Shown here in pieces: positions 27,648 to 42,196 of a stretch of DNA of 64,000 nt (position 1 is its first letter; every line of letters begins with the position of its first letter). The stretch lies in IMG/VR virus record IMGVR_UViG_3300032242_002477, positions 10,581-74,580 of that record; one strand, written 5' to 3'. The notes below the pieces were generated by a model. The model was not told the DNA's origin. It searched no databases and saw only the letters and a program-made list of their open reading frames with translations. This stretch comes from a virus. The position numbers and the translations under genes are program-made.

Positions 27648-28072
27648 TATATTTTCTCCTTATATTTTTTTATTTTAGTTGGCCAATAATACGGAATATC
27701 ATTACTTACCTGGAACTGAGGGCCGTAATGTTCTGGGTCTTTTCGCAGCAAATTTGATTGGTGGGAGATGTGGAACTCTGCGTCACCTAACCACTGCGGA
27801 AAGTTTGTGTTGGCATTATTTGTGAACTTGGGTAATAGACTATCATTAAAACCTCTATGAATCCACTCACGACAGATGATAAATCCGTATTTATTAAGGG
27901 CTGGCTCGAACCCCTGCCACATTAAAACAGCAGGGTGATTTCGCCAGCCTTTAGTATTACCTGCTAACACATTTAATATTTGATACGCCTCTACTCGTTG
28001 CTTACCGAGTCGCTTGTTATCCAAGCTCTTCGCGGTTTGTTCAAAGTCGGGGTATGGCAAAAAAGTCTGCAC
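27647..28072 (-). CDS. Pyrimidine-dimer DNA glycosylase-like protein (MSMEG_6728/DenV-like)
   Basis: QTFLPYPDF..LD.KRLGKQRVEA.QI, HPAVLMW, SHQSNLLRKDP.HY motifs. Confidence 0.8.
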   Translation of the reverse strand: MQTFLPYPDFEQTAKSLDNKRLGKQRVEAYQILNVLAGNTKGWRNHPAVLMWQGFEPALNKYGFIICREWIHRGFNDSLLPKFTNNANTNFPQWLGDAEFHISHQSNLLRKDPEHYGPQFQVSNDIPYYWPTKIKKYKEKI

Positions 28073-28941: not shown

Positions 28942-30921
28942 TCATCGACGTGCTCCAATCTGTGCCTTAACGATATCGCTGGCAATCTCCACCAAGTGAC
29001 GAGGTTCAGTAATAACATTAAAGAACTGGGCATAGTGTCGATACTGCTCAATGGACTCTACTTCATCAAACCCTTCGTAGATGTGACCAATAAACACGGT
29101 GCTGGTAATGACTCCCTTGTCGTTGAGTCGTTTTACTACATCATCGCAAGGTTCAGAATTATCAAATCCACCGTCAGTTATGATGAATAGTAATTTGGTA
29201 GAGCGCGAAGTCATATCAAATATTTGTTCGGCTTCCGTAAGTGCACCAGTTGGATTTGTAGTTCCGTTTGTGTGAAGTACTGGAACTACATGGGGGTCTG
29301 TATCCTCATCAGCACTAAACATTAAACGGCTATTACTATTAAAAGAATATACGGTGGTGTTAGCGTTAAGTGCTTGAAGCCCACGCTTGATAGACCATAC
29401 CGCATGGGAAGCGTGGAGAACACGACCGCTCATTGAACTTGAGCAGTCTACAAGAATTACCGCTTCCATTTCTGTAGAATAATCAGCTTCCTCCCAGCGG
29501 TCAAACATACGATACAGGTCGTTGATACCTGAGTTCATAGTGCGTTGGACATTAAGTCGACCCTGAGGAACTTCGCGTACCCACGACTGCTCGTTATCTA
29601 ATTCTAAGCGTTCGAGTTCACGCGCAAACTCATCTGAAGCGTGACGATAATCCTCCATAACCGAACTTTTAGATGTGTTAGAGCGACCGAGAGTACCGTT
29701 GTATTCGTCGTTGAGATACACGGACTCACGGAACTGTTGAATTTCTTGGGCAACGTGCGTGTTTGTTTTGAGTTTTTTAATGCGCTCGTTGATTTGGTCA
29801 GCTAACTTGTGGTCGGCTTCTGAGTATTGGTGCTCGTTTTCTATATCATTATTAGTGGTATCAAAATTATTATCATCACCTGAACCGCTATCTGAATTAC
29901 TACCTGTTAATGATACTTCTGGAGCATTACCGAACATCTGTTCGGCTTTCTTGGAATCCTGCTCCTGAGCTTTTCCGCTAGTAGCACGACCTTTAGTAAG
30001 TGGGTTGTCTTTGCCACCGCAAGGGCTACTGATTTTAATATTATTACCAGCAGAATTATCGCCCTGTTTATCGCTTATTTCCTGGCCAGGAACTCCGCCA
30101 CTACCGTTACCTTTTGGCATATCATTACCTGTGCCCACGATATCTGCAAACCGTTTGATGAGTGCTTTGGCTAAGTAATTATTGTCAGGAAAGGTAAGAT
30201 AAATATATTCGTCGATGATGTCGGCAACGGATTTGGCGAGTTCCTGTCCATAATTATCTACGAACATTGAAGTAATCCGTTGGCGAATCCCAAAGTCCAT
30301 ATATTTTCTGCCATGAATTAATATGAACGAATCAGCACTTTCGGACTCCAACATGACGTATCGCAGTGCGTTAGCTTCAAGAAAGAATCGAACGCTGGGA
30401 AAACGAGCCGTCATAAGTAACTCGATACGTTGGTCCTCTAATATATTAAAGGCGTTCATAAAGTCGTTTTCAATTACCCACTTAACGAACTCCGACCCAC
30501 CTCTAGGCGTGTAAAGGCTATGGCAGATTTCGTGATAGTTAATTCCGTGAAGGCTAGGAATATCCTCCTCCGATAGCAACTTCACGACTTCACGGTTGAA
30601 CGAGATATTTTTGCCGTCGTTCCAAGCCGACACCTGTGTAGGGATTTCGGGCGTTACGATTTGCACCGTAATATCCTCACCAGTAAGGATACGGTCGAAC
30701 TTGGTATACACTTTTGTAGCTGATATCAAAGCCGAATCTTTTGAGCGGATAAAGCAGTCGATTTCTACTAATAATTGCTCATATTCGTGAATCGTATATA
30801 CATCATCATTTAGAAGGTTTTTGACCGTATCAACACCGAACTCCTCGTCAATGATTTCCCAGTTGGCGCGTAAAAATTCGACAGTAATCTCCTTCTGAAG
30901 CTTTAAATGAGCGTGTGTCAT
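28942..30921 (-). CDS. vWA-domain protein (CobT-like partner of a MoxR ATPase)
   Basis: N-terminal HEICH...NILEDQRIE; C-terminal MIDAS DCSSSM, GTTNP, IITDG. Confidence 0.85.
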   Translation of the reverse strand: MTHAHLKLQKEITVEFLRANWEIIDEEFGVDTVKNLLNDDVYTIHEYEQLLVEIDCFIRSKDSALISATKVYTKFDRILTGEDITVQIVTPEIPTQVSAWNDGKNISFNREVVKLLSEEDIPSLHGINYHEICHSLYTPRGGSEFVKWVIENDFMNAFNILEDQRIELLMTARFPSVRFFLEANALRYVMLESESADSFILIHGRKYMDFGIRQRITSMFVDNYGQELAKSVADIIDEYIYLTFPDNNYLAKALIKRFADIVGTGNDMPKGNGSGGVPGQEISDKQGDNSAGNNIKISSPCGGKDNPLTKGRATSGKAQEQDSKKAEQMFGNAPEVSLTGSNSDSGSGDDNNFDTTNNDIENEHQYSEADHKLADQINERIKKLKTNTHVAQEIQQFRESVYLNDEYNGTLGRSNTSKSSVMEDYRHASDEFARELERLELDNEQSWVREVPQGRLNVQRTMNSGINDLYRMFDRWEEADYSTEMEAVILVDCSSSMSGRVLHASHAVWSIKRGLQALNANTTVYSFNSNSRLMFSADEDTDPHVVPVLHTNGTTNPTGALTEAEQIFDMTSRSTKLLFIITDGGFDNSEPCDDVVKRLNDKGVITSTVFIGHIYEGFDEVESIEQYRHYAQFFNVITEPRHLVEIASDIVKAQIGARR

Positions 30922-32294
30922 TAGAGGGTACCTCCTACGAATTCCTCAGTGCAAGAGAACCCCTCATCAGGTTGGAAAGTAATGTCGATTTTAATACCGA
31001 AGTCGCTGGCAATATTGACCTTGTAGGTATTCTCGACCGTCATACGGACTGCATTACGCTCCTTGCCTACATTAAAGCCGTTGAGAAAGGAATACATCGC
31101 GTAATCCAACCCTAGACGTTCGACATTTCGTGAGAAAGTAACTAGGTCGCGCGTAGATACTGGCGTGGCTAGTTCGCCCTTGATGTGGCTTTCGCGTAGC
31201 GCGTTCGCCATTTCGATGAGCGACTTTGATTTGACCAAAGCTTTCTCAATCTTAGGGTCGTAATCAAACTCCAACTTATGCGCCCAGCGGTTCTTGAACG
31301 CCTCATTTAGTGGTCGGGTTCCGCGGTACATTGGGTTCATATCAGCGACAATAAGAAGGTTTGGGTGAGCCTTGATAATTTCGCCGTCTTTGCCCATTAG
31401 TTGAATCTCACGTCGGTCGTCGAGGAGTGAGAATATAGCGGTTGTCACGCGCTCAGGGAGGAAGTTAACCTCATTGAGAAGCAATACACCGCCATTTCGG
31501 ACAATTTGGGTAACTGCACCGTCTTGCCAAGCATAGTGTCCGTCTGTTGTAGGAATCCATTGACCAATCCACTGTGAAGGCTCTGAGCCGTTGTGACTGG
31601 AAATATTATAGTAATTGAGATTTCGGGCTGAGGCATAGGCTAAAACGCTCATCGTCTTACCCGAGCCTGTTGGACCGAATACAAGCACGTTCTCAGCGTT
31701 AGCCATAGCGGAGTCGTAGATATCGAACTCCGAGAGGTTGCCTAGCACTTTACGCTGGACATACTCTGTAGCCCACTTCTTGTCGGGAACTTGGGCAAGA
31801 ACTACTTCATTGGAGGTCGTGCTTTGACGGGTATCGGTCTTAGCGGTTGCCTGTGGGGAAATTGGGGCTTGGCTGATTGGTTTAATATCAGTATGCCCAC
31901 CGTCAATACGATAGGTATTGATAGAGGAATCACCAATAAGCAAACGTTTATAGAACAGTTCAACCGCTATGGAATACGGCTCCAAGTCGTCGTGAGTTGG
32001 GTGCTCGTATTCAGCCCATTGGTTGATAATGCGAGAGGCTAGGGGAGTGATAATGCCGTTCTCAACCTGTAAGATATTATTAGCAGTAGTAGGAAAGGCG
32101 TACATATAGCAATTCGCTTCTACCTCAGGGAGCTCCTCTAAGGAAATTTCGCGCCAAGCTGAACCGCGACCACGTTGACCAGTATATTCTCTATGATAGA
32201 TAGAGATACCATTAGATACAGGGACTAGAAGGGTCTGATATACCCCTTGACCTTCCCTCTTGCCGATAATGAGAACACTTAGGCTATTTGCCAT
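30921..32294 (-). CDS. MoxR/CbbQ/CobS-like AAA+ ATPase
   Basis: GPTGSGKT, WQDG, LLLNEVN, MNP.YRGTRPLNEAFKNRW, STR motifs. Confidence 0.88.
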   Translation of the reverse strand: MANSLSVLIIGKREGQGVYQTLLVPVSNGISIYHREYTGQRGRGSAWREISLEELPEVEANCYMYAFPTTANNILQVENGIITPLASRIINQWAEYEHPTHDDLEPYSIAVELFYKRLLIGDSSINTYRIDGGHTDIKPISQAPISPQATAKTDTRQSTTSNEVVLAQVPDKKWATEYVQRKVLGNLSEFDIYDSAMANAENVLVFGPTGSGKTMSVLAYASARNLNYYNISSHNGSEPSQWIGQWIPTTDGHYAWQDGAVTQIVRNGGVLLLNEVNFLPERVTTAIFSLLDDRREIQLMGKDGEIIKAHPNLLIVADMNPMYRGTRPLNEAFKNRWAHKLEFDYDPKIEKALVKSKSLIEMANALRESHIKGELATPVSTRDLVTFSRNVERLGLDYAMYSFLNGFNVGKERNAVRMTVENTYKVNIASDFGIKIDITFQPDEGFSCTEEFVGGTL

Positions 32295-32324
32295 TTATAA
32301 GCCCCTTTCATTGGGTTATGGCTG

Positions 32325-32380
32325 ATAATGCCATATATAGCAGACAATACCTACACCCTCTCTCTGTGAAGTAGGTCACA
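32325..32380 (-). promoter_or_regulatory. Array element copy 1, promoter half: CRP-type box + AGGGTGTAGGT-N18-CATTAT
   Basis: CCTACACCCT 32350-32359; TGTGA-agtagg-TCACA 32365-32380. Confidence 0.8.
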
Positions 32381-32460
32381 TCTCTTTGGCTCTCGCTCTC
32401 TCGCTCTTGTTCTTTAGCTCTCTCACTCTCTCTGCTCTCTTATCTCTTATCTCTTTTGTG
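32381..32460. repeat. CT-rich polypyrimidine low-complexity tract
   Basis: tctctttggctctcgctctctcgctcttgttctttagctctctcactctctctgctctcttatctcttatctctttt. Confidence 0.8.
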
Positions 32461-32673
32461 GCTATCTATTGCCTGTGGTACTTATCACATAACAAGCCTG
32501 AGACGGCTTCAAATATCTGGTGGTGCCCGTGTCGCTTTGTCGACATTGTGGGCAGTAGCCAAAATTGCCTATAAAGCAATAAGCAGATATGTTGATTTGT
32601 CGACATTTCATGTCGCATAATCGTGCATATCAGGCTAGTTCTGCAAAATCAAGCCGACACGCCGAATTAGCAG

Positions 32674-32745
32674 TGTGAGATTGGTCACAACTCTCTTCAC
32701 ACACTATTCCCAATAGAGAATGGGGTGGGTGGGCCAACACAAACA
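32674..32745 (-). repeat. Array element copy 1', upstream half: CRP-type box, CTCTC, ATTCCC, GGGTGGGTGGGCCAACACAAACA
   Basis: TGTGA-gattgg-TCACA 32674-32689; G-tract motif 32723-32745. Confidence 0.85.
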
Positions 32746-32805
32746 AGCGGCGAGCACGCCAAGAAGCCCCCACGCACGCGGCGCGGGGGCTTTGGGGCTG
32801 AGGGA

Positions 32806-33498
32806 TTACCTCTTCTTGATGGAGAACAACACGTCCTTGCCTCCTTTCACGCATATATTGCAGGCGATACAGGCGCCTTTTAAGCTTATTTGCTTACGAT
32901 TCTCGGGGCACATTGCAGCTCGGGGTAAAATCGCCTTACCGTCGGCAAATGTCTCTTCTAACATCGCTATTGATATCCCCATATCTTTTAATTCCATCGC
33001 CGTTGACAGATTCTCAGTGTCTGCGGAGAAATATAGGCTTAAATTTGTTAGCTCTAAGCTATGGAGAAATTTCGCGCTATGCGAATTACGCGTGTATACC
33101 CAAAATATAATATTAGGATGAGACTTAATGACATGAGCCCACGCCTCAGTGTAGGTCATGGAGAAAAAATCTCCATCCCAATGGATGCGGAATTTCTTAT
33201 CGGCAGACCATTTCTCACATTCACTCTCAAATGCGATAACCATGCTATTAAGTAGGTTAATCATGGTATCTCTCTTAGCCTCTCTCAATAGGCTATAGTT
33301 ATACATGAGCACATCTCTCACGCTAGGCCTAATTTTTTCTAGTTTGCCTGCGTAACAGATACTTTCACAGATAGAAGTAGCTCCTGGACAGGAATACGCC
33401 TTGCCACTAGGCAAGCCGAAGGAATTACCTATGCGAGCAGACCCGCTAGGCGTGAGGCTATTAGCCACTTTGACATCTTTAGACCTTTTAAGTTCCAT
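32806..33498 (-). CDS. Gene-product-88-like (radical-SAM-like) protein, leaderless
   Basis: FGLPSG..SCPGAT..C..ICYA, FRIHWDGDF, YTR, C-terminal CP...C..C..C; TAAGGT-N6-ATG. Confidence 0.7.
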   Translation of the reverse strand: MELKRSKDVKVANSLTPSGSARIGNSFGLPSGKAYSCPGATSICESICYAGKLEKIRPSVRDVLMYNYSLLREAKRDTMINLLNSMVIAFESECEKWSADKKFRIHWDGDFFSMTYTEAWAHVIKSHPNIIFWVYTRNSHSAKFLHSLELTNLSLYFSADTENLSTAMELKDMGISIAMLEETFADGKAILPRAAMCPENRKQISLKGACIACNICVKGGKDVLFSIKKR

Positions 33499-33504
33499 AG
33501 GTAG

Positions 33505-33620
33505 ACCTTATCTCGCTATATCTAGCAGACCTACACCCTGATGGTGTGAATTAGGTCACAGTGAACTCTCTTTAATATATATTCCCTAAATGGACATGGG
33601 AGGGTGGGCCAACACAAACA
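33505..33620 (-). repeat. Array element copy 2
   Basis: -10 TAAGGT; CCTACACCCT 33530; TGTGA-attagg-TCACA 33545; GGGAGGGTGGGCCAACACAAACA 33598. Confidence 0.9.
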
Positions 33621-33677
33621 AACGCGCCCCGCGAAAAGCGGGGAGCGGGTTTTAAGCCCGCCCCCCAGCCTTTCCGC

Positions 33678-34118
33678 TTAGAGGTACTGTTTCGACCAAT
33701 CGACAGGTAGAGCAATCTCATCTTTGCTAGTCATCTCAAGATAAGAGAGCATATTTGCGCGTTCATTGTAATTACTGTTATTTTCAGGCTTAATCGGCTC
33801 ACTAGGCTTATTAGGCATAGTGTCAAACTCAGAGGCGAAAATGCCCTTGATAGTTAGCCGAATATCAACACCTGTACTTTGGCGAGCGTTATTTACCCAC
33901 TCCCAATCGTCAGACACATTGGCATAGGTAATCTCATTACTCTTAGCAAGCAAGGAAGACACTTTCTTGACATATAAGGTTATGGACTTTTCATAAGCAA
34001 TTTTCGCCTTTTCATAAGCCTTAACCTCTCTCTCATATTCTTTGAGAGTATCAGCCTGTTTTCTTTCAATTTTAGCGATAAGTAGCGTCTTATCAACTAC
34101 GAGCCTTGTGGTTGCCAT
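33678..34118 (-). CDS. Cassette gene, hypothetical
   Basis: AAGGGGG RBS; own promoter and downstream hairpin. Confidence 0.7.
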   Translation of the reverse strand: MATTRLVVDKTLLIAKIERKQADTLKEYEREVKAYEKAKIAYEKSITLYVKKVSSLLAKSNEITYANVSDDWEWVNNARQSTGVDIRLTIKGIFASEFDTMPNKPSEPIKPENNSNYNERANMLSYLEMTSKDEIALPVDWSKQYL

Positions 34119-34175
34119 AAGGCGAACCCCCCTTATTTATCTGTAACAGAACCCTGTTGTTCAGTTACATAGCAG

Positions 34176-34300
34176 AACCTATCGCACCAAACTCCTAAGA
34201 CCTACACCCTCCGCGTGTGACATACATCACACTCTAGTTTTATCTCTCTTACTCCATACTCCCTATAATATTAAACGGGGTGGGAGGGCCAACACAAACA
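34176..34300 (-). repeat. Array element copy 3
   Basis: -10 TAGGTT; CCTACACCCT 34201; TGTGA-cataca-TCACA 34216; G-tract/CAACACAAACA 34277-34300. Confidence 0.9.
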
Positions 34301-34328
34301 TATTTTCGCAGCGGGCAATCTCGCGACA

Positions 34329-34355
34329 AAGGTCGTCAAGGTCGTCAAGGTCGTC
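34329..34355. repeat. 9-bp tandem repeat (AAGGTCGTC)x3
   Basis: Read directly from the sequence. Confidence 0.85.
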
Positions 34356-34433
34356 ACCTAAAAAAATAGCGGGCTCTGCCTAGAAACAGAACCCGCTATG
34401 TAGTCAGGGGGTGACTACCTCACTAAAACCCCG

Positions 34434-34682
34434 TTAGTCACGCTCCCAATTGTCATAATCAACGGGGTCATATTCTCCCCCAGAACTATAACTCTCAGAA
34501 CAATCAGGGCATGTCCAATCTGCCGTCCAATAGACTACCCCATGCTCGTAGACTTCGAGAGTAGGTATTTCTCCCGAAAACCCACATTCGCACTCTAAGT
34601 CTTGAACTCCATCAGACTCATCATATCCAGAAATAGCGGGCTCATTACCCGATACCCCAGGAGGATAATTACTCAATGACAT
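34434..34682 (-). CDS. Cassette gene, small acidic zinc-ribbon protein
   Basis: MSLSNYPPGV...CECG...CPDC; GGAGG RBS. Confidence 0.65.
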   Translation of the reverse strand: MSLSNYPPGVSGNEPAISGYDESDGVQDLECECGFSGEIPTLEVYEHGVVYWTADWTCPDCSESYSSGGEYDPVDYDNWERD

Positions 34683-34956
34683 CTTCAACCTCCAATATAG
34701 TGTTAAGGAACTCTTCCAAATGGTGTTGCTCAACAATAGCGTTAGCAGGTGCCGTTGCCTCACCCTTGAAAGTGACAGGACTAGGCAATTCAATCTGCCG
34801 ATAGCTGTCACCCTCTGCCACAGCATAGAGAGCCTCAATACATGGTATAACCATGCTTGATGGAATAGGCGGATAAAAATTACCCGTCAAATGAACCTTG
34901 ACTCCAACTTCCAATGGAACTGATACTGATAAGTCTTGTGCGAAATTACGCCCCAT
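34669..34956 (-). CDS. Cassette gene, hypothetical (HL.GN.YPP.P...EQHHL)
   Basis: AAAGGGG RBS before MGRNFAQ. Confidence 0.7.
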   Translation of the reverse strand: MGRNFAQDLSVSVPLEVGVKVHLTGNFYPPIPSSMVIPCIEALYAVAEGDSYRQIELPSPVTFKGEATAPANAIVEQHHLEEFLNTILEVEDVIE

Positions 34957-34981
34957 GACTTCCCCCTTTCTAGGTAAGCAA

Positions 34982-35099
34982 AACTTATCACGCCACAATA
35001 GGCAGACCTACACCCTCTTGATGTGACTTATATCACAACTCTCTCCACCACCTATTCCCTTTAGGGTTAGGAAGGGTGGGTGGGCTTCCAACACAAACA
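34982..35099 (-). repeat. Array element copy 4
   Basis: -10 TAAGTT; CCTACACCCT 35007; TGTGA-cttata-TCACA 35022; G-tract motif 35074-35099. Confidence 0.9.
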
Positions 35100-35181
35100 T
35101 CCCACGCGTTCAAGCGTGTCGCGAAACGCGAGAACCCGACCCCCACCAAGCAGGGAGTCGGGTCGCGTTTTTGCTAGGGGG

Positions 35182-35664
35182 CTAGCAAATCTCGAAGCCA
35201 CCACAAGCTAACAAAAATTCGGCAAATTCTTGGACATTCTCTACCGAGAACGGATAGTGAGTCTGCCAAGGTCGCTTAGTTTTTTTGCCATCACAGGAAT
35301 TACAAGGGTCGCGGAAAGTAACTTCACCCTCTACATAATCGAACCAACCTTCCTGAACTTGAACAATCCCCACACCTTTACAAAAATCGCAAGGTTCATC
35401 CTCAAGGCTATCCAACGACTCTTGATATTGACGAGCATATTCGGCAGTACGACCCGAAGCAATTTCCGCTAACAAATCCTCAGCGAGAGCAATCGCCCCT
35501 TCACTATCGAACCCGTCACCGCTATTGCTATGACCATCAATCTCTGAACACTCAGGTCGTATCTGCTCACAGTAATCCCAAAGTGGTCGCCACCACCACA
35601 CATTATTGCGAAAATACTCACCCTTAGTAGAAATCGGCGTTTTACCATAGACATCCATACCCAT
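35182..35664 (-). CDS. Cassette gene, hypothetical with a DnaJ-type CxxCxGxG zinc insert
   Basis: MGMDVYG..GEYFRNNVWWWRPLW; CDFCKGVG, CNSCDGK; CGGFEIC. Confidence 0.7.
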   Translation of the reverse strand: MGMDVYGKTPISTKGEYFRNNVWWWRPLWDYCEQIRPECSEIDGHSNSGDGFDSEGAIALAEDLLAEIASGRTAEYARQYQESLDSLEDEPCDFCKGVGIVQVQEGWFDYVEGEVTFRDPCNSCDGKKTKRPWQTHYPFSVENVQEFAEFLLACGGFEIC

Positions 35665-35666
35665 AA

Positions 35667-35960
35667 TTATTCACCCATACTCTCTGCTAGTTTTTGACAC
35701 ATCATAAAATCGTTATACTCACTCGCCCCTAATTGAGTCGCCACAAGAGAAATAGTTTCAATCAAGGCTGATGCCTCATCTTTCTCCACATTGTGAACCT
35801 CAATCAAACGAGATATAGCGACAGTTTTTAAGAAACTAAGGAACATTGACAGGTTATTATTCCACCATGCCATATCCTCATTACCAATTTCAAGATTATT
35901 TTTCATTAAATCCATTAAATCGAACATCCGTTTAATTTTTTCAATATTAGGCTTATCCAT
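35667..35960 (-). CDS. Cassette gene, hypothetical
   Basis: AAAGGGGG RBS before MDKPN. Confidence 0.65.
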   Translation of the reverse strand: MDKPNIEKIKRMFDLMDLMKNNLEIGNEDMAWWNNNLSMFLSFLKTVAISRLIEVHNVEKDEASALIETISLVATQLGASEYNDFMMCQKLAESMGE

Positions 35961-35990
35961 AATATTGAACCCCCTTTCTTGGTAGACCAA

Positions 35991-36113
35991 ACATTATCCC
36001 ACCGACTAGGGCAGACCTACACCCTGCCATTGTGACTTACATCACATTAAACTCTCTTCTTCCCTTTATTCCCTGTATTGGTAACTGGGTGGGTGGGCAG
36101 TTCCAACACAAAC
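35991..36113 (-). repeat. Array element copy 5
   Basis: -10 TAATGT; CCTACACCCT 36016; TGTGA-cttaca-TCACA 36031; G-tract motif 36087-36113. Confidence 0.9.
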
Positions 36114-36205
36114 TTTTCGCGGGCGGGCTTGCCACGCGTTCGGGCGTGTCGCAATAAAAAAAACCCCCACCTTTCCTAAGGGCAGGGGTTCTTTCCGCTT
36201 GGGGG

Positions 36206-36724
36206 CTATTCCTCTAGAGGAATTATTAAATCAGAATTCTCTAGTATTTTATCAACTACTGTACTATGTAATTCTGTTCTCATCATAGAGAATCCGCTGG
36301 CTGGCCAACCTGCTTGATAACATCTTGCTAGTAGATTGGTAAGATTAGACGCGTCAGACTTAGTTTCGCCATGACTAAGTGTTAAATACGAATTAGCGAG
36401 CGCGGTATCTCCTAATTCATACTTGAACGAGGAAAGTACGGCATAGATAGGAGCCTTATAACCATCAGGAAAGGACATCCCGATAATCTCTAGGAAATCG
36501 GCAACATCTGAAACGGAGGACTCATTAGGTAATCCGATAACATAATCTCTTATGTCTAGGACTTCACTATTGACTCCCACTAGGAAATCAAGCAATAAAT
36601 CGTCGGTAATCTCACTCTCTCGACCTTCACGCCATAATTTATACGCCGTATCAATCGCTAGTTTAGACTTGCCAACTGTGGTGCTATGTGCGGAAACCTT
36701 TTCCGCTTGGAGTGATGTAATCAT
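36206..36724 (-). CDS. Cassette gene, DUF4192-like protein
   Basis: IRD...AP.YAVL...YE.GD.ALA...L..LL.R....GWP matches the C-terminal pattern of actinobacterial DUF4192. Confidence 0.6.
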   Translation of the reverse strand: MITSLQAEKVSAHSTTVGKSKLAIDTAYKLWREGRESEITDDLLLDFLVGVNSEVLDIRDYVIGLPNESSVSDVADFLEIIGMSFPDGYKAPIYAVLSSFKYELGDTALANSYLTLSHGETKSDASNLTNLLARCYQAGWPASGFSMMRTELHSTVVDKILENSDLIIPLEE

Positions 36725-36765
36725 CACTTCCCCCAATCTGTCGGGTGTACTGTCCGACATGGCAA

Positions 36766-36891
36766 ACACTATCTGACCAATACCCTTAGACCTACACCCT
36801 GTCTATGTGACTTATGTCACACTCTGTAACTCTCTTCTTCCCATAATTCCCATAATAAAGAGATGGGTGGGAGGGCAGCTCAACACAAACA
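36766..36891 (-). repeat. Array element copy 6
   Basis: -10 TAGTGT; CCTACACCCT 36791; TGTGA-cttatg-TCACA 36806; G-tract motif 36865-36891. Confidence 0.9.
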
Positions 36892-36940
36892 TTTTTTGCC
36901 CACGCGCTCGGGCGTGTCGCGGAGCGTGAAAAACGGGGGC

Positions 36941-37066
36941 TTACGCCCCCGCCTTCCTATGATTTTTGCGCGTACACTTACCGCAAGGCTTACCAGTAAT
37001 TGCCACGAGTAAGTCATTATCATCTCCGCATTGTGGGCAGACACTATCTAATAAGTGACGGCTCAC
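36941..37066 (-). CDS. Cassette gene, 41 aa zinc-finger peptide
   Basis: CPQC...CGKC; AAGGAGG RBS; GTGA overlap. Confidence 0.55.
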   Translation of the reverse strand: MSRHLLDSVCPQCGDDNDLLVAITGKPCGKCTRKNHRKAGA

Positions 37067-37308
37067 GCCGTCACCTCCTTTCGTAGTTGTGCCTCGCACT
37101 CTTCGAGGATTGCTAGAGCGTATTCGCGCCCCTTGATGCCACGACCTGGGTTGATACCTGTTAAACGGGTGAAAGCGTGGAGAGATGATTCTTTCGTGAG
37201 TTGTGCTCGTGATGTGTTCCATGTGCGGATTTCAAGATTCAACCCTTGCTTAAGGATAAGAACCTGAATCGGTGATATCGAGAATTCTACTAATTGACCT
37301 TGTGTCAT
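37063..37308 (-). CDS. Cassette gene, hypothetical
   Basis: AAAGGGGG RBS. Confidence 0.65.
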   Translation of the reverse strand: MTQGQLVEFSISPIQVLILKQGLNLEIRTWNTSRAQLTKESSLHAFTRLTGINPGRGIKGREYALAILEECEAQLRKEVTA

Positions 37309-37331
37309 TTAGTGCCCCCTTTCACTATCAA

Positions 37332-37457
37332 ACATTACAGCCCCAACCAGCCAAACCTACACCCTGCCATTGTGATTTATGTCACACGCTTAGACTCTCT
37401 TCTTCCCTTTATTCCCTTATATATTGAGCTGGGTGGGTGGGCTGCTCAACACAAACA
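37332..37457 (-). repeat. Array element copy 7
   Basis: -10 TAATGT (N17); CCTACACCCT 37356; TGTGA-tttatg-TCACA 37371; G-tract motif 37431-37457. Confidence 0.9.
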
Positions 37458-37523
37458 TTTACCGCGCGACCGCGGACATGCGAAAGCCCCCACCTTTCGG
37501 CAGGGGCTCCGCGTTAGCGGGGG

Positions 37524-37676
37524 CTAACCTTCTTGACCGCACGCCTTGAGGAAACGGTACGTGTCAAAATTACTGTTGAATTGTCGGCAAGCTCTCGCGA
37601 CTGCTTGACATGTCGCTAAGTCTGCCCCGACTGCCTTCAGCTCATCCGCTAAGGCTTGAAAGTGTTTACGGCTCAT
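37524..37676 (-). CDS. Cassette gene, 50 aa (MSRKHFQALA...NFDTYRFLKACG)
   Basis: Absent from the ORF track; ATGA-coupled to the upstream gene. Confidence 0.65.
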   Translation of the reverse strand: MSRKHFQALADELKAVGADLATCQAVARACRQFNSNFDTYRFLKACGQEG

Positions 37677-37918
37677 GCTCTCACCCCCTTAAGATGAGCG
37701 TTTAATTCTGCCTTGACTGTCCGAGCCGTATCGCCCCTCCAGTATGTCAGATTAGACAATGCGTAGAGAACAATAGATGAACCGCTGTCCTCGTAATAAT
37801 TGTCAGATATTGACGTGAGCGATTCCATAGCCGAGATGTAAGGCTCAGCGTAAACGTACCAATTCTTATAAGCACACTCAGATTTAACAATCTGAGCTAA
37901 TTCTGCGAGAGTTCGCAT
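37673..37918 (-). CDS. Cassette gene, hypothetical (A.PY..AM..L...Y.LSN...WRG..AR..KAEL)
   Basis: AAAGGGGG RBS before MRTLAELA. Confidence 0.7.
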   Translation of the reverse strand: MRTLAELAQIVKSECAYKNWYVYAEPYISAMESLTSISDNYYEDSGSSIVLYALSNLTYWRGDTARTVKAELNAHLKGVRA

Positions 37919-37959
37919 TCTTGCCCCCTTTACTAGTTCGGCACTTTGCCGATAAGAGA

Positions 37960-38084
37960 AACCTACCACCCACCACCAGCAAGACCTACACCCTGCCATT
38001 GTGACATAAGTCACACGCCTAAACTCTCTCCTCCTTATTCCCTTTAGGGTTGTGACTGGGTGGGTGGGCAGTCCAACACAAACA
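37960..38084 (-). repeat. Array element copy 8
   Basis: -10 TAGGTT; CCTACACCCT 37985; TGTGA-cataag-TCACA 38000; G-tract motif 38058-38084. Confidence 0.9.
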
Positions 38085-38132
38085 AATAGGGCGAGCCCGC
38101 TTTCGCGAGCCCGCCCCTGCGGAAATTCGGGG

Positions 38133-38462
38133 CTAAACCCCTGCCCCCTCCTCCTCAATTTCCAAGTCCTCGCGTATTAAGTCCGAGAGACAAGAGCAGG
38201 AATCTTGCATTTCGAGACAATAGCAATCATAGCCAGCGTTGAGATACCTACATTCATCACGGTGAAAAGCTCGCACTACACTATAGCCCTCATCTGTAGG
38301 CTTACCGCACACACCACACCACTCGACTCTACCTAACTCAAAATTGGCGTGAAACTCGCACAGAACCTCATTATTAAGAGCATACCTTGCTACACCCCCA
38401 CACTCGCGTGGAAAAAGGTCAGGACGGACGGAAGTAGAAACATTAAATTGGCAATTTGCCAT
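38133..38462 (-). CDS. Cassette gene, Cys-rich hypothetical
   Basis: AGGGGG RBS; many Cys/His residues. Confidence 0.6.
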   Translation of the reverse strand: MANCQFNVSTSVRPDLFPRECGGVARYALNNEVLCEFHANFELGRVEWCGVCGKPTDEGYSVVRAFHRDECRYLNAGYDCYCLEMQDSCSCLSDLIREDLEIEEEGAGV

Positions 38463-38506
38463 GAGAAGCCCCCTAAAACGGTGTAGGCGGTGTTGCCTAC
38501 GGCAAC

Positions 38507-38637
38507 AGTTTATTGCCCCGATTACAGAAACCTACACCCTGACCATGTGACATAAGTCACATATACTAGGCATTTCTCTTCAACAACCCCCTTACGAAGT
38601 AAGTTAGGAGCTGGGTGGGTGGGCTCCAACACAAACA
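38507..38637 (-). repeat. Array element copy 9
   Basis: -10 TAAACT (N17); CCTACACCCT 38531; TGTGA-cataag-TCACA 38546; G-tract motif 38613-38637. Confidence 0.9.
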
Positions 38638-38713
38638 TTTCGCCGCGACACGCCCAACCGCGGACATGCGAAAGCCCCCGCCGTGTGGCAGGGGCTCCGC
38701 ATTTATCCGAGGG

Positions 38714-39118
38714 CTATTCGGAAACCTCGTGTGAGCACTCGATAACTTCCTCGCTATCCGATACCTTTCCGTCTAGTGAGATAACAGAAAGATTGTCGCT
38801 AACCCAATCCTCATCTATTTCATCGCTGGTAGTAATTGAGAATCGAGCCTTGATTAAGACCTCTACTACATAGTCATAACTCAATATAAGACCAAAGATG
38901 CTTGCGATTTCCTGAGTGTGTTCCTCAAGGTTGTCGCGGTTATCTTTGAGATAAGTTTCGAGCGAATCACGCTGACTATATAGGCGCGATAGTGTCTTAA
39001 GATGGTACTGATTAGTACCCTTGAGATTTTCGATTTCGGATTTTAGTGCGTCATACTCGCTGAGAGTAAGAGTTACTTCCATAGCTACTGCTGGTGTTAC
39101 TGGTGTATCTGTATCCAT
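38714..39118 (-). CDS. Cassette gene, acidic coiled-coil hypothetical
   Basis: AAGGGGG RBS before MDTDTP. Confidence 0.7.
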   Translation of the reverse strand: MDTDTPVTPAVAMEVTLTLSEYDALKSEIENLKGTNQYHLKTLSRLYSQRDSLETYLKDNRDNLEEHTQEIASIFGLILSYDYVVEVLIKARFSITTSDEIDEDWVSDNLSVISLDGKVSDSEEVIECSHEVSE

Positions 39119-39165
39119 TGTATAGCCCCCTTGTTTAGTTATAGTCACACTTTGACTATGCCCTA

Positions 39166-39221
39166 AGGCTACACCACCAACACCCCTCGACCTACACCCT
39201 GCTCGTGTGAGCTACCTCACA
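39166..39221 (-). promoter_or_regulatory. Array element copy 10 (promoter half only)
   Basis: -10 TAGCCT; CCTACACCCT 39191; TGTGA-gctacc-TCACA 39206. Confidence 0.85.
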
Positions 39222-39240
39222 TTTACCCCCCGACCCTTAA

Positions 39241-39256
39241 TCGAACAGGTGTTCGA
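39241..39256. promoter_or_regulatory. LexA (SOS) box, actinobacterial type
   Basis: TCGAAC-AGGT-GTTCGA is a perfect match to TCGAAC-N4-GTTCGA and is intergenic. Confidence 0.75.
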
Positions 39257-39296
39257 AAGGGCCACCAGACTTCAGACCCAGGTCATACATAGAAAG

Positions 39297-39779
39297 CTAG
39301 GCAGTAGCCGAGTTTTTGAGCAAATTTGCGCTTTTGCGGATATTGCAGGTTGCGTGGGAGGGCTTTACATTTGAAATAATATTTGGGCCACCTTTGGCTA
39401 AAGGAATTACGTGGTCAAGGTGCAGACCGTACTCCCAGCCTGGTTCACCGCAATTTCGGGTTAATCTCATATCAATTGAGGTATTACAGATATGACACTC
39501 CGTACCCCATAGGTCTAACACGTCTTTAGTAGAAAAATTAACAGACTTAACTTGTCGTAGTCGTGCTCGTGCTTTTCGGTCTTTTCTTCGGTTCCACTCT
39601 GTTTTTTTATGGGGATACCGCTTGTAATAGTCTTTATCTTGTTGTTTATACTTTTCTGGGTCTTTGGCTATTTGAGCGCGTCTATAAGCAGCTGCTATGG
39701 CTTTGCAATCAAGGCACGCTATTTCGTTAAGCTTTTTGCAGCGGTAATAGTCCCCTATAGATACCCCATGTTGGTCCAT
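39297..39779 (-). CDS. HNH endonuclease
   Basis: CHIC...HLDHVIPLAKGG.N..SNVKPSHATCN.RK. Confidence 0.88.
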   Translation of the reverse strand: MDQHGVSIGDYYRCKKLNEIACLDCKAIAAAYRRAQIAKDPEKYKQQDKDYYKRYPHKKTEWNRRKDRKARARLRQVKSVNFSTKDVLDLWGTECHICNTSIDMRLTRNCGEPGWEYGLHLDHVIPLAKGGPNIISNVKPSHATCNIRKSANLLKNSATA

Positions 39780-39852
39780 ATGAAAATAATACTACACTTC
39801 ATAGGCAGTAGCTAAGTTTTGCGGGTGTTGCAGGTTGTGTTAGTATGTGCGT

Positions 39853-40041
39853 ATGGATAAATTACTGTATACCGCTGTTGAGACTGCAAAGATGTTGAAT
39901 GTTTCCAGAGCTACAATTTACGTGCTTATTCGCGAGGGCAAGTTGAAGCCAGTGCATATCGGGCGTTCTATGCGTGTGCATATTGATGAAATTCGCGGGT
40001 TTGTAGATTCGCTTGTTGCTGATTCTGAGGTGACTGTATGA
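39853..40041 (+). CDS. Excisionase-like HTH DNA-binding protein, leaderless
   Basis: LLYTAVETAKMLNVSRATIYVLIREGKL..VHIGRS.R; TAGTAT-N6-ATG. Confidence 0.8.
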   Translation: MDKLLYTAVETAKMLNVSRATIYVLIREGKLKPVHIGRSMRVHIDEIRGFVDSLVADSEVTV

Positions 40042-40508
40042 GAGTTATGAGAGAGTTTTCCGACGGGTATATCGGGTTTACTCAAGGCTCTTTTGACGAG
40101 TGGGCCGTAGTGGTGAAAGTTGCGGGCTTTCCAGAATGGCCTAAGGACTCTTGGTACTTCACAAAGCTTGCAGAGTACGCTCAAGAGCTAGGAGAGGTCG
40201 TCTACAAGGACTTTGTAACTTTATACGAAGTCACAACTAAAGAGGCCTCAGAGAGCATTTTTGACCTGATTTCGGGTATTTCATTCAGATATCCTAAGCC
40301 AAAGGAAGCAGAGGTAATATTCTGTATTCTCTACATGACAATGATTGCAGAAGAGAATAAAGACGGGGCTATCTTGAAAAAACGTATCAAACGCTTAGGA
40401 GTACACCAGATACTGGTCGAGGGTATGGCACCCGAGCTAGCTGCTAACTACTCTCGCGGCAAGAAGTCGGAAGAGCTAGTTATGGAATGTCATTCAAGAG
40501 GATTTTAA
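40038..40508 (+). CDS. Hypothetical protein (DUF7004-like)
   Basis: G.FD.W.V, P.D..YF, MIAEENK..ILKKRIKRLG.HQ.L motifs. Confidence 0.55.
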   Translation: MRVMREFSDGYIGFTQGSFDEWAVVVKVAGFPEWPKDSWYFTKLAEYAQELGEVVYKDFVTLYEVTTKEASESIFDLISGISFRYPKPKEAEVIFCILYMTMIAEENKDGAILKKRIKRLGVHQILVEGMAPELAANYSRGKKSEELVMECHSRGF

Positions 40509-40545
40509 CGAAAAAATTGAAATACCAAATGATGGATAGTAAAGT

Positions 40546-40935
40546 ATCCAAGCCATAGAGAAGGAGTTAGAGAGGTGATGTAGGTGGAGATTAAAGAACT
40601 TATTGGCATATTTGATGCCTCTAAAAGGACTTATAGGAACGATTGATGCATTACCGAAGACTTTAGGTCATAATTGATGCGGTGACTTATCAGCGAAAAT
40701 CGGGTAGCCATGTATTATACCTGCCCAACGATTCAAGCCATAGAGAAGGAGTTGAAATGAGAGGGATATGCGATGTTTCAAATTGTTCCATTCCAGATGA
40801 ATCAAGAAAAATCCATGAAGATTTTGAAGTTCTGGACAGAAATGTCTGTTGGGAATGTGGTGAAAGAATCAAAAAAACTGTTGAAAACCACATGGCAAAT
40901 TTTTTGAATGTCATCCAAGCCATAGAAAAGGAGTT
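40546..40935 (+). repeat. Three 23-bp direct repeats AT(C/T)CAAGCCATAGA(G/A)AAGGAGTT
   Basis: Copies at 40546, 40731 and 40913; each encodes IQAIEKEL and contains AAGGAG. Confidence 0.85.
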
Positions 40936-40942
40936 AAAATGA
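40757..40942 (+). CDS. Small zinc-binding protein ending IQAIEKELK
   Basis: C....C...CWEC; RBS supplied by repeat 2. Confidence 0.6.
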   Translation: MRGICDVSNCSIPDESRKIHEDFEVLDRNVCWECGERIKKTVENHMANFLNVIQAIEKELK

Positions 40943-41276
40943 AATCTTACACAAAGCGTTTAATTAAAAATGAAAAGATATGGGTTCATGCAGGGTGGTG
41001 TAAACAAATTGCGCTTAGCATAAAGATTACACCCTGGAGTTTTGATATTGATATTCTTTGTTTTTTTATTGCAGTGGAGTACTAATGACACAATGTGATT
41101 CATGCGGAAGCACGCTTAATAGTACTGTTAGTCTTCATACTAATAAGTGCATTTTTTGCGATAGCGAGGCCCCCATCAAAAATTCTGGTGTACTGTCAGA
41201 TGTCGCGGCGGAAAAAGAAGAAGATTAATTCTCTCTTTGGTGCACTTACTCAGCACCTCTTTGATATTTTTATCCT

Positions 41277-41510
41277 ATGTTTATGATGTGGTTGCAGGAC
41301 CAAGAAGACAGAACAGATTCAACAGGAAGATTTGCTAGATTAGTTACAGACGATAAAAACAATGGGTGCTCTGGGCCTATCAAAACACCCGATGAACTAC
41401 TAACGCATTTTTTTAACAAACATGCCAAGGTATATAAAATTTTACGAGAAAACCTTGTAGTAGTTTATAAAGAATATGCCGCGCTTAACAATAAATTCCC
41501 CTTAATATAG
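41277..41510 (+). CDS. YozE-like small protein
   Basis: F..WL..Q.DR.D..G.FA..V..D pattern. Confidence 0.45.
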   Translation: MFMMWLQDQEDRTDSTGRFARLVTDDKNNGCSGPIKTPDELLTHFFNKHAKVYKILRENLVVVYKEYAALNNKFPLI

Positions 41511-41524
41511 GAGAGAATAAGACC

Positions 41525-42196
41525 ATGGCAAAACCTCGTAAACCCCGCGCTGCTCGTCCTGCAAGAAGCGGACGGGGCAATCCTACTATAGGTAGGACCG
41601 CACAAGACAAACTTGTTTCTCCAGAGCGCATGCTTGGCCGTATTCGTCGGCCAGGTGAGTATGACGAGAGCCGCGAAGAGAACGAATATGGCAATACAGT
41701 TGATTTTGCCGATGCCAAAATGCGTCGTGAAGCTGGAGAAGGCGTAAACCGATACCCAGGAAAGTGCGTTCACTGCTCTAAGAGTATTGCAGTTGGAATG
41801 GGAGAACCTATTCATCGCGACGATGTTCCTGCCGAAAAATTGCGCGGAAAAGGCGAATGGCATGTTCAATGCGCTGGCGCATCATGCCTTAATAAAAAGG
41901 GAAATGTAAAAGGCCCAGCAACTCAAGATGTACCTGTTGCTCAAGGAACTGTCGGTAAAAAAGTTCCAATTGGTAAGGCGGGCGGAGCACATCACGCTGT
42001 TCACGTGCACGATAGCCAGGGAGTTTGGCAAGGTTCACTTAGCTGGCATCCTCGTTCAGGAGTCATTCAAAGTATTGATATTAACCCAGACCACCCAAAT
42101 CCAGATGTCGTACATAATCGTTTAATGCAGGACGCGCTCTCTATGTCAAATCAACGCGGATTATCAACTCCAAGAAATAGAGGCTTAAATCCATGA
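41525..42196 (+). CDS. Hypothetical protein
   Basis: AGGAG RBS; RYPGKCVHC...W.H..C. Confidence 0.6.
   Translation: MAKPRKPRAARPARSGRGNPTIGRTAQDKLVSPERMLGRIRRPGEYDESREENEYGNTVDFADAKMRREAGEGVNRYPGKCVHCSKSIAVGMGEPIHRDDVPAEKLRGKGEWHVQCAGASCLNKKGNVKGPATQDVPVAQGTVGKKVPIGKAGGAHHAVHVHDSQGVWQGSLSWHPRSGVIQSIDINPDHPNPDVVHNRLMQDALSMSNQRGLSTPRNRGLNP

Follow-up and report, generated by a model that had tools for sequence, protein, structure and literature searches.

A probable PeSL-like terminator-promoter cassette array with three-layer junctions in an uncultured tailed phage

In a 64,000-nucleotide stretch of IMG/VR virus record IMGVR_UViG_3300032242_002477 (here called the window), one element recurs between a series of unrelated genes, raising the question of whether it merely co-regulates these genes or also allows them to be exchanged as units. 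The initial annotation described nine self-contained cassettes separated by a conserved element of ~120 bp, each module bringing its own promoter and terminator and open to gain, loss or shuffling by recombination. Our analysis partly supported that interpretation: we consider it likely that this is a hyperplastic region of PeSL-like terminator-promoter cassettes with three-layer junctions, driven by homologous recombination, and not an integron. The phage is an uncultured tailed phage, distantly related to BRock-like Streptomyces phages, and weak clues point to a low-GC freshwater actinobacterium as its probable host. It was not present in any RNA run searched.

The array (32325..39256, transcribed from the minus strand) comprised ten promoters and nine structured junction modules in one shared orientation. 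Motif counts far above chance confirmed that the original observation was real. In the window, CCTACACCCT occurred 10 times, all on the plus strand (0.05 expected), at exactly the positions reported earlier (32350, 33530, 34201, 35007, 36016, 36791, 37356, 37985, 38531 and 39191); perfect TGTGA-N6-TCACA palindromes occurred 11 times, every one within the array (0.07 expected), and each CCTACACCCT copy had one 5 nt further on, as had been noted. On the minus strand, CCCNCCCNCCC was found nine times in the window, confined to the array (0.15 expected), which held nine C-tracts, while exact GTTTGTGTTG was present as 9 array copies and 3 solitary copies elsewhere in the window. Recomputed from copy positions, CCTACACCCT spacing was 546-1180 bp, in agreement with the unit length given before, and the intervening genes lay on the minus strand with GC-rich hairpins after them, again as described. 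This layout suggests nine autonomous minus-strand transcription units. Read on the gene strand, each junction consists of three layers, namely a predicted terminator, a structured spacer and a predicted regulated promoter. The single ~120-bp element originally proposed was instead resolved into two independent parts, a group-wide module (layers 1 and 2, in 78 loci) and a lineage-specific promoter/operator half. Three points had been overlooked: a -10 element (TAnnnT) at fixed spacing, a covarying stem that encloses the C-tract, and the part played by GTTTGTGTTG as a T-rich terminator tail.

Layer 1 is a GC-rich terminator hairpin whose T-rich tail, AAAT-GTTTGTGTTG, is invariant. Terminator-like hairpins numbered 13 compared to 5.5 expected, at least 4 of them with the GTTTGTGTTG box as tail, and GC content reached 61% over the 60 nt that precede the box, where mean dG was -24.3 kcal/mol, relative to -13.0 in control windows. 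At the gene ends, a GC-rich stem with a T-rich tract behind it gives the sequence pattern of an intrinsic terminator; the tail is imperfect, since AAAT stands before the GTTTGTGTTG box. Layer 2 is a structured spacer of 45-65 nt between terminator and promoter. It has a covarying stem that displays CCCNCCCNCCC in the loop; its other parts are a small hairpin with GGGA at its end and a purine tract devoid of C that closes with GAGAGAG. The P1 stem scored at least 5 in 46 of 54 copies, compared to 11.5 (maximum 18) after arm swapping, with ~35 distinct arm pairs, and the P2 hairpin exceeded shuffled sequence (3.59 vs 2.80). Across positions 30000-42000, neither strand matched an Rfam covariance model at E up to 1, and layers 1 and 2 were found neither in Rfam nor in cultured phages. 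The structured spacer is a new element; our guess is that it most likely acts on RNA from read-through, backing up the terminator or providing insulation, or else that a conserved factor of host or phage binds there.

Layer 3 starts with the palindrome, which N5 separates from AGGGTGTAGGT, the -35 region; TAnnnT follows at 19-20 nt, and then comes a AAAGGGGG ribosome-binding site. TAnnnT stood 19-20 nt beyond the box in 9/10 copies, relative to a background of 0.021 per position. A scan for sigma-70-consensus promoters showed no enrichment (9 vs 10.5 expected), the tract upstream of the AGGGTGTAGGT promoter was purine-rich (GAGAGAG) and not AT-rich, and to our knowledge the AGGGTGTAGGT -35 box is unlike any known sigma motif. 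The hairpin-tail sites and the fixed-spacing TAnnnT support the earlier proposal that every unit would bring a terminator and a promoter of its own. All eleven palindromes matched the CRP consensus TGTGA-N6-TCACA perfectly and stood at a constant distance from the core promoter. The -10 hexamer followed their centre at ~42-43 nt, which, with the start inferred 6-8 nt after TAnnnT, places that centre near -55. With such a start site, the centre does not coincide with a canonical CRP activation position (-41.5, or -61.5, -71.5 and so on), and repression or a phage-encoded binder at the palindrome appears equally as possible as binding of host CRP. Together, the perfect CRP/GlxR-type palindrome, the invariant AGGGTGTAGGT box over the -35 region, TAnnnT and the AAAGGGGG Shine-Dalgarno would form a regulated promoter.

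The individual features, all on the minus strand, are given here from the array head downwards. An HNH endonuclease gene (39297..39779) lies directly upstream of the head. The head promoter (copy 10, 39166..39256) lacks a module upstream, consistent with its earlier description as a promoter half alone, and carries a LexA-type box, TCGAAC-N4-GTTCGA (39241-39256), the palindrome (39206-39221), AGGGTGTAGG (39191-39200) and TAnnnT ~20 nt beyond. An ORFan gene (38714..39118) precedes junction 9 (38506..38713), which has terminator hairpins, GTTTGTGTTG at 38627-38636, a GGAGC/GCTCC stem around the C-tract (38613-38623), a CTTAC-TTC-GTAAG hairpin, the palindrome at 38546-38561 and the -35 box at 38531-38540. 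Beyond a Cys-rich ORFan gene (38133..38462), junction 8 (37960..38132) combines a 13-bp terminator hairpin (38088-38117), the tail of which is the GTTTGTGTTG box (38074-38083), with a GACTG/CAGTC stem around the C-tract (38058-38068), a CCC-TAAA-GGG hairpin and a purine tract (palindrome 38000-38015; -35 box 37985-37994). A two-gene cassette (37524..37918), made up of 37673-37918 (phrog_13953, unknown function) and 37524-37676, leads to junction 7 (37331..37523), with hairpins, a GTTTGTGTTG box (37447-37456), a TTGAGC/GCTCAA stem around the C-tract (37431-37441) and a purine tract (palindrome 37371-37386; -35 box 37356-37365). The cassette at 36941..37308 (37063-37308 and a short Cys-rich frame, 36941-37060) is followed by junction 6 (36766..36940), where a terminator, a CG-rich hairpin with CGACACGCC and the GTTTGTGTTG box (36881-36890) precede a C-tract (36865-36875) with a weak stem and a purine tract (palindrome 36806-36821; -35 box 36791-36800).

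The cluster c0 gene (36206..36724), whose family is the most widespread in related arrays, stands before junction 5 (35991..36200), which has a terminator with a T8 run (36163-36183), a CG-rich hairpin, a GTTTGTGTTG box (36104-36113), an AACTG/CAGTT stem around the C-tract (36087-36097), a purine tract, the palindrome (36031-36046), the -35 box (36016-36025) and a -10 in the GATAAT region; a -10 was also present in junctions 9, 8, 7, 6, 4, 3 and 2. Next come a two-gene cassette (35182..35960; 35667-35960 and 35182-35664) and junction 4 (34982..35180), in which the hairpins include one at 35103-35118 with the GTTTGTGTTG box (35089-35098) as tail, along with a GGAAG/CTTCC stem around the C-tract (35074-35084) and a CCC-TAAA-GGG hairpin (palindrome 35022-35037; -35 box 35007-35016). 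Another two-gene cassette (34434..34956; 34669-34956 and 34434-34682) is followed by junction 3 (34176..34399), with a 15-bp terminator (34366-34399), three tandem GACGACCTT repeats, a GTTTGTGTTG box (34290-34299) and a minimal module without the P1 stem (C-tract 34278-34288; palindrome 34216-34231; -35 box 34201-34210). In L120 and L050, the gene at 33678..34118 and the GP88 cassette stand in the opposite order. Junction 2 (33505..33680) also has a minimal module (C-tract 33598-33608), and its terminator hairpin (33627-33643) has the GTTTGTGTTG box (33610-33619) as tail (palindrome 33545-33560; -35 box 33530-33539). The last cassette gene (32806..33498; PF17338, phrog_1392, function unknown) belongs to the GP88 family, and among cassette proteins GP88 alone reached a curated Pfam cut-off; 8/10 had no PHROG family and the remaining 2 fell in families of unknown function. 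By sequence, this is probably a region of accessory genes expressed early.

The next junction (32674..32800), with a terminator, a GTTTGTGTTG box (32735-32744) and a minimal module (C-tract 32723-32733), had been described as a half-copy. It does carry module and palindrome (TGTGACCAATCTCACA, 32674-32689) but no CCTACACCCT box, with GGCGTGTCGGCTTGAT in place of the AGGGTGTAGG box; it is not a broken unit but a conserved, specialised last junction, also found in the relative L120 with an identical palindrome. Below it, a conserved stretch (32381..32673) contains TGTCGACA and GGCTACTGCC motifs and a 49-codon open frame, after which comes a ~70-nt GA-rich tract (32381-32450); in relatives, nucleotide-level similarity runs across in-frame stops. 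Promoter copy 1 (32325..32380; palindrome 32365-32380, -35 box 32350-32359, deviating -10 in the CATTAT region) stands ahead of the AAA+ ATPase gene of a conserved downstream operon (28942..32294), which encodes an AAA_5 (MoxR/CobS-like) ATPase (30921-32294) and a VWA-domain protein (28942-30921). Relatives had a class B module upstream of the AAA_5 ATPase gene.

When related phages were scanned for the element, the two halves behaved differently. The module turned up on the coding strand in 78/112 IMG/VR loci, distant kin of BRock-like Streptomyces phages, with 129 copies of class A and 30 of class B, and was conserved across phages whose proteins were just 30-65% identical, whereas the promoter half was not found elsewhere. 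Layer 3 is lineage-specific: close relatives retained the promoter geometry with a different box, other lineages had other operators, and the boxes that relatives have at this position resemble those of CRP, LexA, DnaA or PhoP. The -35 box was uniform inside each genome and different from genome to genome, which fits copy homogenisation.

Homologous cassette genes occurred in different orders and combinations across related phages, as predicted if cassette content varies, and contrary to the outcome in which relatives keep the same genes in order; a ~97%-identical variant was unrearranged, retaining all nine cassettes in the same order. The array region is supported as hyperplastic. A rather improbable alternative is that the junctions are merely a co-regulated promoter-terminator set and that reshuffling results from ordinary recombination, illegitimate or homologous, at any point of a non-essential region, the elements having no special role. 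Against this, a clean one-cassette indel between L087 and L118 stopped exactly at the GTTTGTGTTG box, similar module variants were flanked by wholly different genes in 7/13 informative pairs, and the -35 box pattern fits homogenisation of copies. Breakpoints were also nearer to modules than random positions (median 115 nt vs 201 nt, for 59 non-independent ends), an enrichment that was moderate, which favours the alternative, and could partly reflect gene boundaries. Also in its favour, genes at times moved without their module (c0 and c2 lie together in a single unit in L117 and L030 but occupy separate units in L042), and neither breakpoints in the ~97% variant nor, in assembled contigs, reliable deletion or circle joints from this phage were seen. 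The predicted excised circles or joints linking two elements did not appear in these contigs, and the gain, loss and shuffling of modules is therefore evolutionary, not demonstrably ongoing. In the favoured PeSL-like reading, each unit would end and restart transcription by itself, gated by a host regulator, and the shared junctions would be a target for the phage's own homologous-recombination enzymes (a UvsX-like recombinase is encoded), so that whole units could be gained, lost and reordered, as in T4-type PeSLs.

It is very improbable that the array is an integron-like or site-specific system in which the module, especially class B, is an attC-like site for a dedicated recombinase or nuclease, such as the HNH endonuclease whose gene adjoins the array. 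Class B elements (75-142 nt, closed by inverted GTTTGTGTTGG/CCAACACAAAC) do look superficially attC-like, their inverted ends being conserved and their internal hairpins variable, and these hairpins are near-perfect palindromes, with wobble pairs almost absent, as expected of a DNA-level structure. However, the second inverted end is missing from class A modules, the fold has several branches and is not a single imperfect hairpin, cassettes bring their own promoters, and no excision joints were seen in assembled contigs. The earlier remark that the window has no integrase holds across the 74.6-kb contig (77% complete), in which no Phage_integrase (PF00589) or Resolvase (PF00239) protein, and hence neither a tyrosine nor a serine recombinase, was found. 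Least probable of all is that the C-tract works via a template-strand G-quadruplex or sense-strand i-motif, blocking read-through or regulating the promoter: the plus strand has three invariant G-runs (GGGNGGGNGGG) and two copies have a fourth, but four runs with loops of <=9 nt occurred in just 2/9 window copies and 36/114 class A modules, so a canonical intramolecular quadruplex is not a conserved property, and with the covarying stem around the tract pointing to a hairpin loop, the counts already largely refute this reading.

Compared to known systems, the junctions resemble CRP/GlxR-dependent promoters in their eleven perfect TGTGA-N6-TCACA sites at fixed distance to the core promoter, but the inferred centre lies near -55 and not at -41.5 or -61.5. 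Cluster A stoperators and Cluster K start-associated sequences are 13-17-bp protein-binding sites of temperate phages; like the present element they are short asymmetric intergenic repeats of Actinobacteria phages in fixed orientation to transcription, but they lack covarying hairpins and are not tied to a terminator and promoter per unit. Integron attC arrays share co-oriented, unrelated small genes and folded repeats with conserved ends and variable centres. The analogy nevertheless fails: integrons have an adjacent IntI-type tyrosine recombinase, absent from this contig, and promoterless cassettes, unlike the present ones with promoters and terminators, and attC folds as one imperfect hairpin bearing R''/R' core sites, whereas the present element is multipartite. 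PeSL (promoter-early stem-loop) cassettes of T4-type phages are composite intergenic motifs of a terminator stem-loop and an early-type promoter (PMC2839356, PMC4122927). They differ in residing in T4-like myoviruses and not in kin of BRock-like actinophages. Exchange between neighbouring PeSL motifs yields mini-circles; in the assembled contigs, no reliable joint of this kind from the present phage was seen. Here, moreover, the promoter is not of sigma-70 consensus and has no AT-rich upstream tract, a regulator palindrome is built into the junctions, and an extra structured spacer of 45-140 nt with an invariant 10-mer and C-tract has no PeSL counterpart. The comparison drawn in the initial annotation still fits (PMC2839356, PMC4122927): in both, a hairpin with a T-rich tail and a promoter form one motif that recurs in the same orientation between small ORFans of a hyperplastic region, related phages differ through whole-unit indels and reordering, and general phage recombination machinery is invoked in place of a dedicated recombinase.

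The repeated motif reported for the array (32325–39256) in the initial annotation proved real and highly non-random, with all of its listed features present. The sequence CCTACACCCT occurred at 32350, 33530, 34201, 35007, 36016, 36791, 37356, 37985, 38531 and 39191, always on the + strand (10 copies in the window; 0.05 expected), and every copy was followed 5 nt later by TGTGA-N6-TCACA. All 11 perfect palindromes of this form in the window fell within the array (0.07 expected), as did the nine minus-strand copies of the C-tract CCCNCCCNCCC (0.15 expected). The 10-mer GTTTGTGTTG was present nine times in the array and, without an adjoining hairpin or C-tract, as exact solitary copies at three sites outside it (23842–23851 and 27803–27812 on the + strand, 62133–62142 on the − strand).

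The array genes lie on the minus strand and, read in that direction, each junction comprises the stop codon of the preceding gene, one or two GC-rich hairpins, AAAT-GTTTGTGTTG, a variable-sequence stem (P1) around CCCNCCCNCCC, a small hairpin (P2, in most copies) with GGGA as its 3′ arm, a C-free purine tract ending 3′ in GAGAGAG, TGTGA-N6-TCACA, N5 and AGGGTGTAGGT, TAnnnT at 19–20 nt past AGGGTGTAGGT, and finally the ribosome-binding site AAAGGGGG and a start codon. These parts form three layers: a terminator hairpin with the GTTTGTGTTG box in its tail, a structured spacer (with that box, the shared module), and a lineage-specific promoter/operator. The three solitary GTTTGTGTTG copies were slightly more than expected by chance; two of the three were within coding sequence, and their 5′ flanks were A/T-rich, resembling the module consensus. 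The ribosome-binding sites were unusually uniform over all cassette genes, with GGGGG instead of GGAGG, 5–9 nt from the start codon. The C-free stretch that separates GGGA from GAGAGAG was often a short tandem repeat with a 3–7-nt unit, such as GTT GTT GT, GTAT GTAT, GGAAT GGAAT or GGGAAATA GGGAAATA (e.g. window positions 38022–38045 and related loci L042, L015 and L063), of which the composition but not the sequence was kept, as if made by slippage. In junction 3, three tandem copies of GACGACCTT (34305–34362, − strand) were located between the terminator and the module.

The hexamer TAnnnT was found at its fixed offset in 9 of 10 copies, far above the genome-wide background of 0.021 per position, and is therefore a real −10 element. 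The AGGGTGTAGGT box spans the predicted −35 region, and the centre of the palindrome would be near −55 relative to the inferred transcript start; a scan for the sigma-70 consensus showed no enrichment (9 found vs 10.5 expected). A look-up of RNA sequencing runs containing this phage gave none. Terminator-like hairpins were enriched (13 vs 5.5 expected), and the GTTTGTGTTG box, directly preceded by the consensus AAAT, served as the T-rich tail of at least four of them. The 60 nt upstream of this box were 61% GC and strongly structured (−24.3 vs −13.0 kcal/mol in controls). At the array head, 19 nt upstream of the first palindrome, was a perfect TCGAAC-N4-GTTCGA of LexA type (actinobacterial/Gram-positive; 39241–39256), the sole such site in the window (0.10 expected), and LexA-type boxes likewise directly followed the module in the relatives L097, L014 and L042. 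An HNH endonuclease gene (39297–39779, − strand) lies directly upstream of the array head, with homologs at the matching relative position in L097 and L056.

Folding of the spacer was examined by an alignment-free test in which stem arms were swapped between the 54 copies that carry an insert ahead of the C-tract. The helix flanking the C-tract scored ≥5 in 46 of the 54 copies, compared to 11.5 (maximum 18) with swapped arms, and about 35 different arm pairs were in use, which amounts to covariation for a predicted hairpin, P1, with the C-tract exposed in its loop. The second predicted hairpin, P2, in which a UUC loop was frequent, exceeded shuffled sequence (3.59 vs 2.80) and is weaker than P1 but real. 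RNAalifold returned no structure from a MAFFT alignment of the modules because the stems were out of register in that alignment. In a second form of the module (class B), a multi-branch fold of 75–142 nt was closed by pairing of GTTTGTGTTGG with CCAACACAAAC and held two or three single-stranded CCCACCC boxes; its internal hairpins differed entirely from phage to phage, and in relatives it was positioned upstream of an AAA+ ATPase gene. Pairs in P1, the 5′ flank of which is G/T-rich, included 21 G·T vs 7 A·C on the sense strand; class B hairpins were nearly all Watson-Crick paired. A comparison of sense and antisense folding energies was discarded as a strand test, since tracts rich in G/T or in G confound it.

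Several other accounts of the spacer were rejected. Against a G-quadruplex or i-motif, four G-runs were present in just 2 of the 9 copies in the array and in 36 of all 114 modules examined. For a pseudoknot pairing the C-tract with the purine tract, covariation was absent (z = 0.5). A leader peptide starting from the (A/T)TG directly before TTTGTGTTG was dismissed, as inserts differ in length by amounts that break the frame. A KH-domain protein considered as C-tract binder gave a sub-threshold Pfam match and no match in solved structures, and was practically without homologs.

Matches to GTTTGTGTTG plus the C-tract were found in 111 IMG/VR stretches, and full modules were present on the coding strand in 78 of 112 loci examined (129 of the first form, class A, and 30 of class B). 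No other viral contig matched the exact promoter-half pattern, and its sole metagenome match (L122) lay between large bacterial ORFs, an unrelated chance occurrence. What had been described as a single unified element is thus two independent layers. The module had no match in Rfam and was not found in cultured phages by blastn; small genes form comparable runs in the cultured phage LuckySocke, yet 38.6 kb of its sequence contain only one palindrome, and it was rejected as a counterpart. A literature search for the 10-mer returned only unrelated primer matches, and no close relatives were found via the ATPase protein. In a scan of genome collections, all module matches but one were chance occurrences within coding sequence. 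The exception, L158 (CBFHTP010000044.1), is a 7.3-kb contig with eight modules and small cassette genes from a Candidatus Nanopelagicaceae MAG bin. A phage origin of this fragment is almost certain, and its presence in the bin is either a mis-binning or a hint to the host.

The third layer differed between lineages. Although GAGAGAG and the start codon were about 100–125 nt apart in all phages examined, the intervening sequence was lineage-dependent, while the 10-mer and C-tract were invariant throughout the phages compared. The close relatives L120, L050 and L066 shared the arrangement of palindrome, N5, box and, about 19 nt further on, TAnnnT, but their box (GGGTGGCAGGTT or GGGTCTAGGGTT) differed from that of the window, and further lineages had TTATAACGAAATCGTTATAA with CGGCGTGTCG, or CGACACGCC. 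In some lineages the third layer carries the DnaA-box-like TTATCCACA past the module, in some LexA boxes, and in some GTTCAYC repeats with an 11-nt period and a resemblance to actinobacterial PhoP boxes. The box was uniform inside one genome and different between genomes. Such host-regulator-like boxes occupied the palindrome position in L158, L012, L016/L020/L038/L090 and L042, their types over these loci being PhoP-like GTTCAYC direct repeats, TTATCCACA, triple LexA boxes, ATGACCAGTCAT palindromes and TTATAACGAAATCGTTATAA.

The source contig is an IMG/VR virus of 74.6 kb that is 77% complete, and the window spans its bases 10581–74580. Its gene products include a DnaB-like helicase, a family A DNA polymerase, a UvsX-like recombinase, ribonucleotide reductase, a DpdA-like transglycosylase and a large terminase subunit. 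The contig has no gene for a tyrosine or serine recombinase, and the analogy drawn to integrons was wrong. The DpdA-like queuine tRNA-ribosyltransferase homolog (phrog_887; 23224–24762, + strand) suggests 7-deazaguanine modification of the phage DNA. The nearest cultured relatives were BRock-like Streptomyces phages (54% identity for the large terminase subunit, 40% for the polymerase). A GC content of about 42%, the actinobacterial-type LexA box at 39241–39256, palindromes of CRP/GlxR type and one related contig in a Nanopelagicaceae bin weakly suggest that the host may be a low-GC actinobacterium.

The junction at 32674, first considered a half-copy, is instead a conserved specialised junction, also found in L120 with an identical palindrome. 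The stretch past it (32381–32673, − strand) contains two TGTCGACA motifs, GGCTACTGCC, CGACACGCC, a possible TTGATT-N17-TATGCA promoter and a 49-codon open frame, and after these a roughly 70-nt GA-rich tract. Its nucleotide-level likeness in L120, L097 and others extends across in-frame stops. The stretch may be a non-coding element, or else a small gene in decay; a small zinc-ribbon gene in 32462–32611 was rejected on account of in-frame stops in relatives.

Cassette proteins were nearly all ORFans, with homologs of 30–65% identity in many module-bearing loci. Cassette maps of relatives showed extensive reordering: the protein clusters c0, c1 and c2 occurred in at least five arrangements, the 33678 and GP88 (32806–33498, − strand) cassettes were in swapped order in this phage relative to L120/L050, and a 34669 homolog directly followed the GP88 homolog in most relatives but not here. 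The difference between L087 and L118 was precisely one unit, whose right junction fell at the box of a module with 91% identity between the two. Within arrays, the median distance of breakpoints to a module was 115 nt vs 201 nt at random, and 56% vs 32% were within 120 nt, over 59 ends from 22 pairs that are not independent; a first analysis took in unrelated loci, which diluted the signal. In 7 of 13 informative pairs, the genes on either side of similar module variants were unrelated. A test of linkage of module variants to upstream or downstream genes had no discordant cases to draw on. A contig from a second sample was collinear with 32404–39309 at about 97% identity, which counts against ongoing shuffling. 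The joints seen in a search for deletions or circles between elements belonged to other module-sharing phages, none to the window phage. In the second sample (run X2), the depth of the array contig was 34.6 vs 11–14 for flanking contigs and contigs broke at both array ends; one possibility is that several genotypes in the sample have the array block in common but differ in their flanks, another that repeats caused assembly artefacts at these breaks.

The array is best read as a PeSL (promoter-early stem-loop)-like system shuffled by homologous recombination, and it contains a novel conserved structured motif. The earlier proposal of plug-and-play, PeSL-like units was right in spirit, as each junction has its own predicted terminator and promoter and unit order is reshuffled in relatives. 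The structured spacer would most plausibly act as a terminator back-up or insulator on read-through RNA; binding of a conserved host or phage factor would rank second, and a dedicated recombination site would be the least likely role. A broader reading, which we consider doubtful, is that the shared module (AAAT-GTTTGTGTTG box, C-tract loop on a covarying stem, GGGA hairpin and class B box-closed fold) would be an undescribed structured element of a large uncultured freshwater actinophage group, bound by a conserved factor of host or phage origin, for example a termination factor, insulating host-regulator-gated units and providing the crossover point that moves whole units between phages, with lineages having wired the same chassis to CRP, LexA, DnaA and PhoP signals.

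The PeSL-like reading would widen the PeSL principle, in which conserved terminator-promoter junctions are the joints for shuffling phage accessory genes, from the T4-like phages of Gram-negative bacteria to a group of uncultured phages unrelated to them. A widespread structured motif with no entry in any library is also defined here, and it is searchable, modellable and testable. The promoters suggest perfect host global-regulator sites (cAMP-CRP here; SOS, phosphate and DnaA in relatives) in every accessory unit; if so, expression of phage genes would be gated by host physiological state. As compact terminator-insulator-promoter parts, the junctions could serve actinobacterial synthetic biology. 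PeSLs are composite terminator-promoter junctions beside ORFans in a hyperplastic region that is shuffled by homologous recombination (PMC2839356, PMC4122927). The array junctions share this composite build, the neighbouring ORFans and the hyperplastic setting. However, the array belongs to a different phage lineage, its promoter is not of the sigma-70 consensus, a regulator box is built into its junctions, and these junctions carry a structured spacer, deeply conserved, for which PeSLs have no equivalent.
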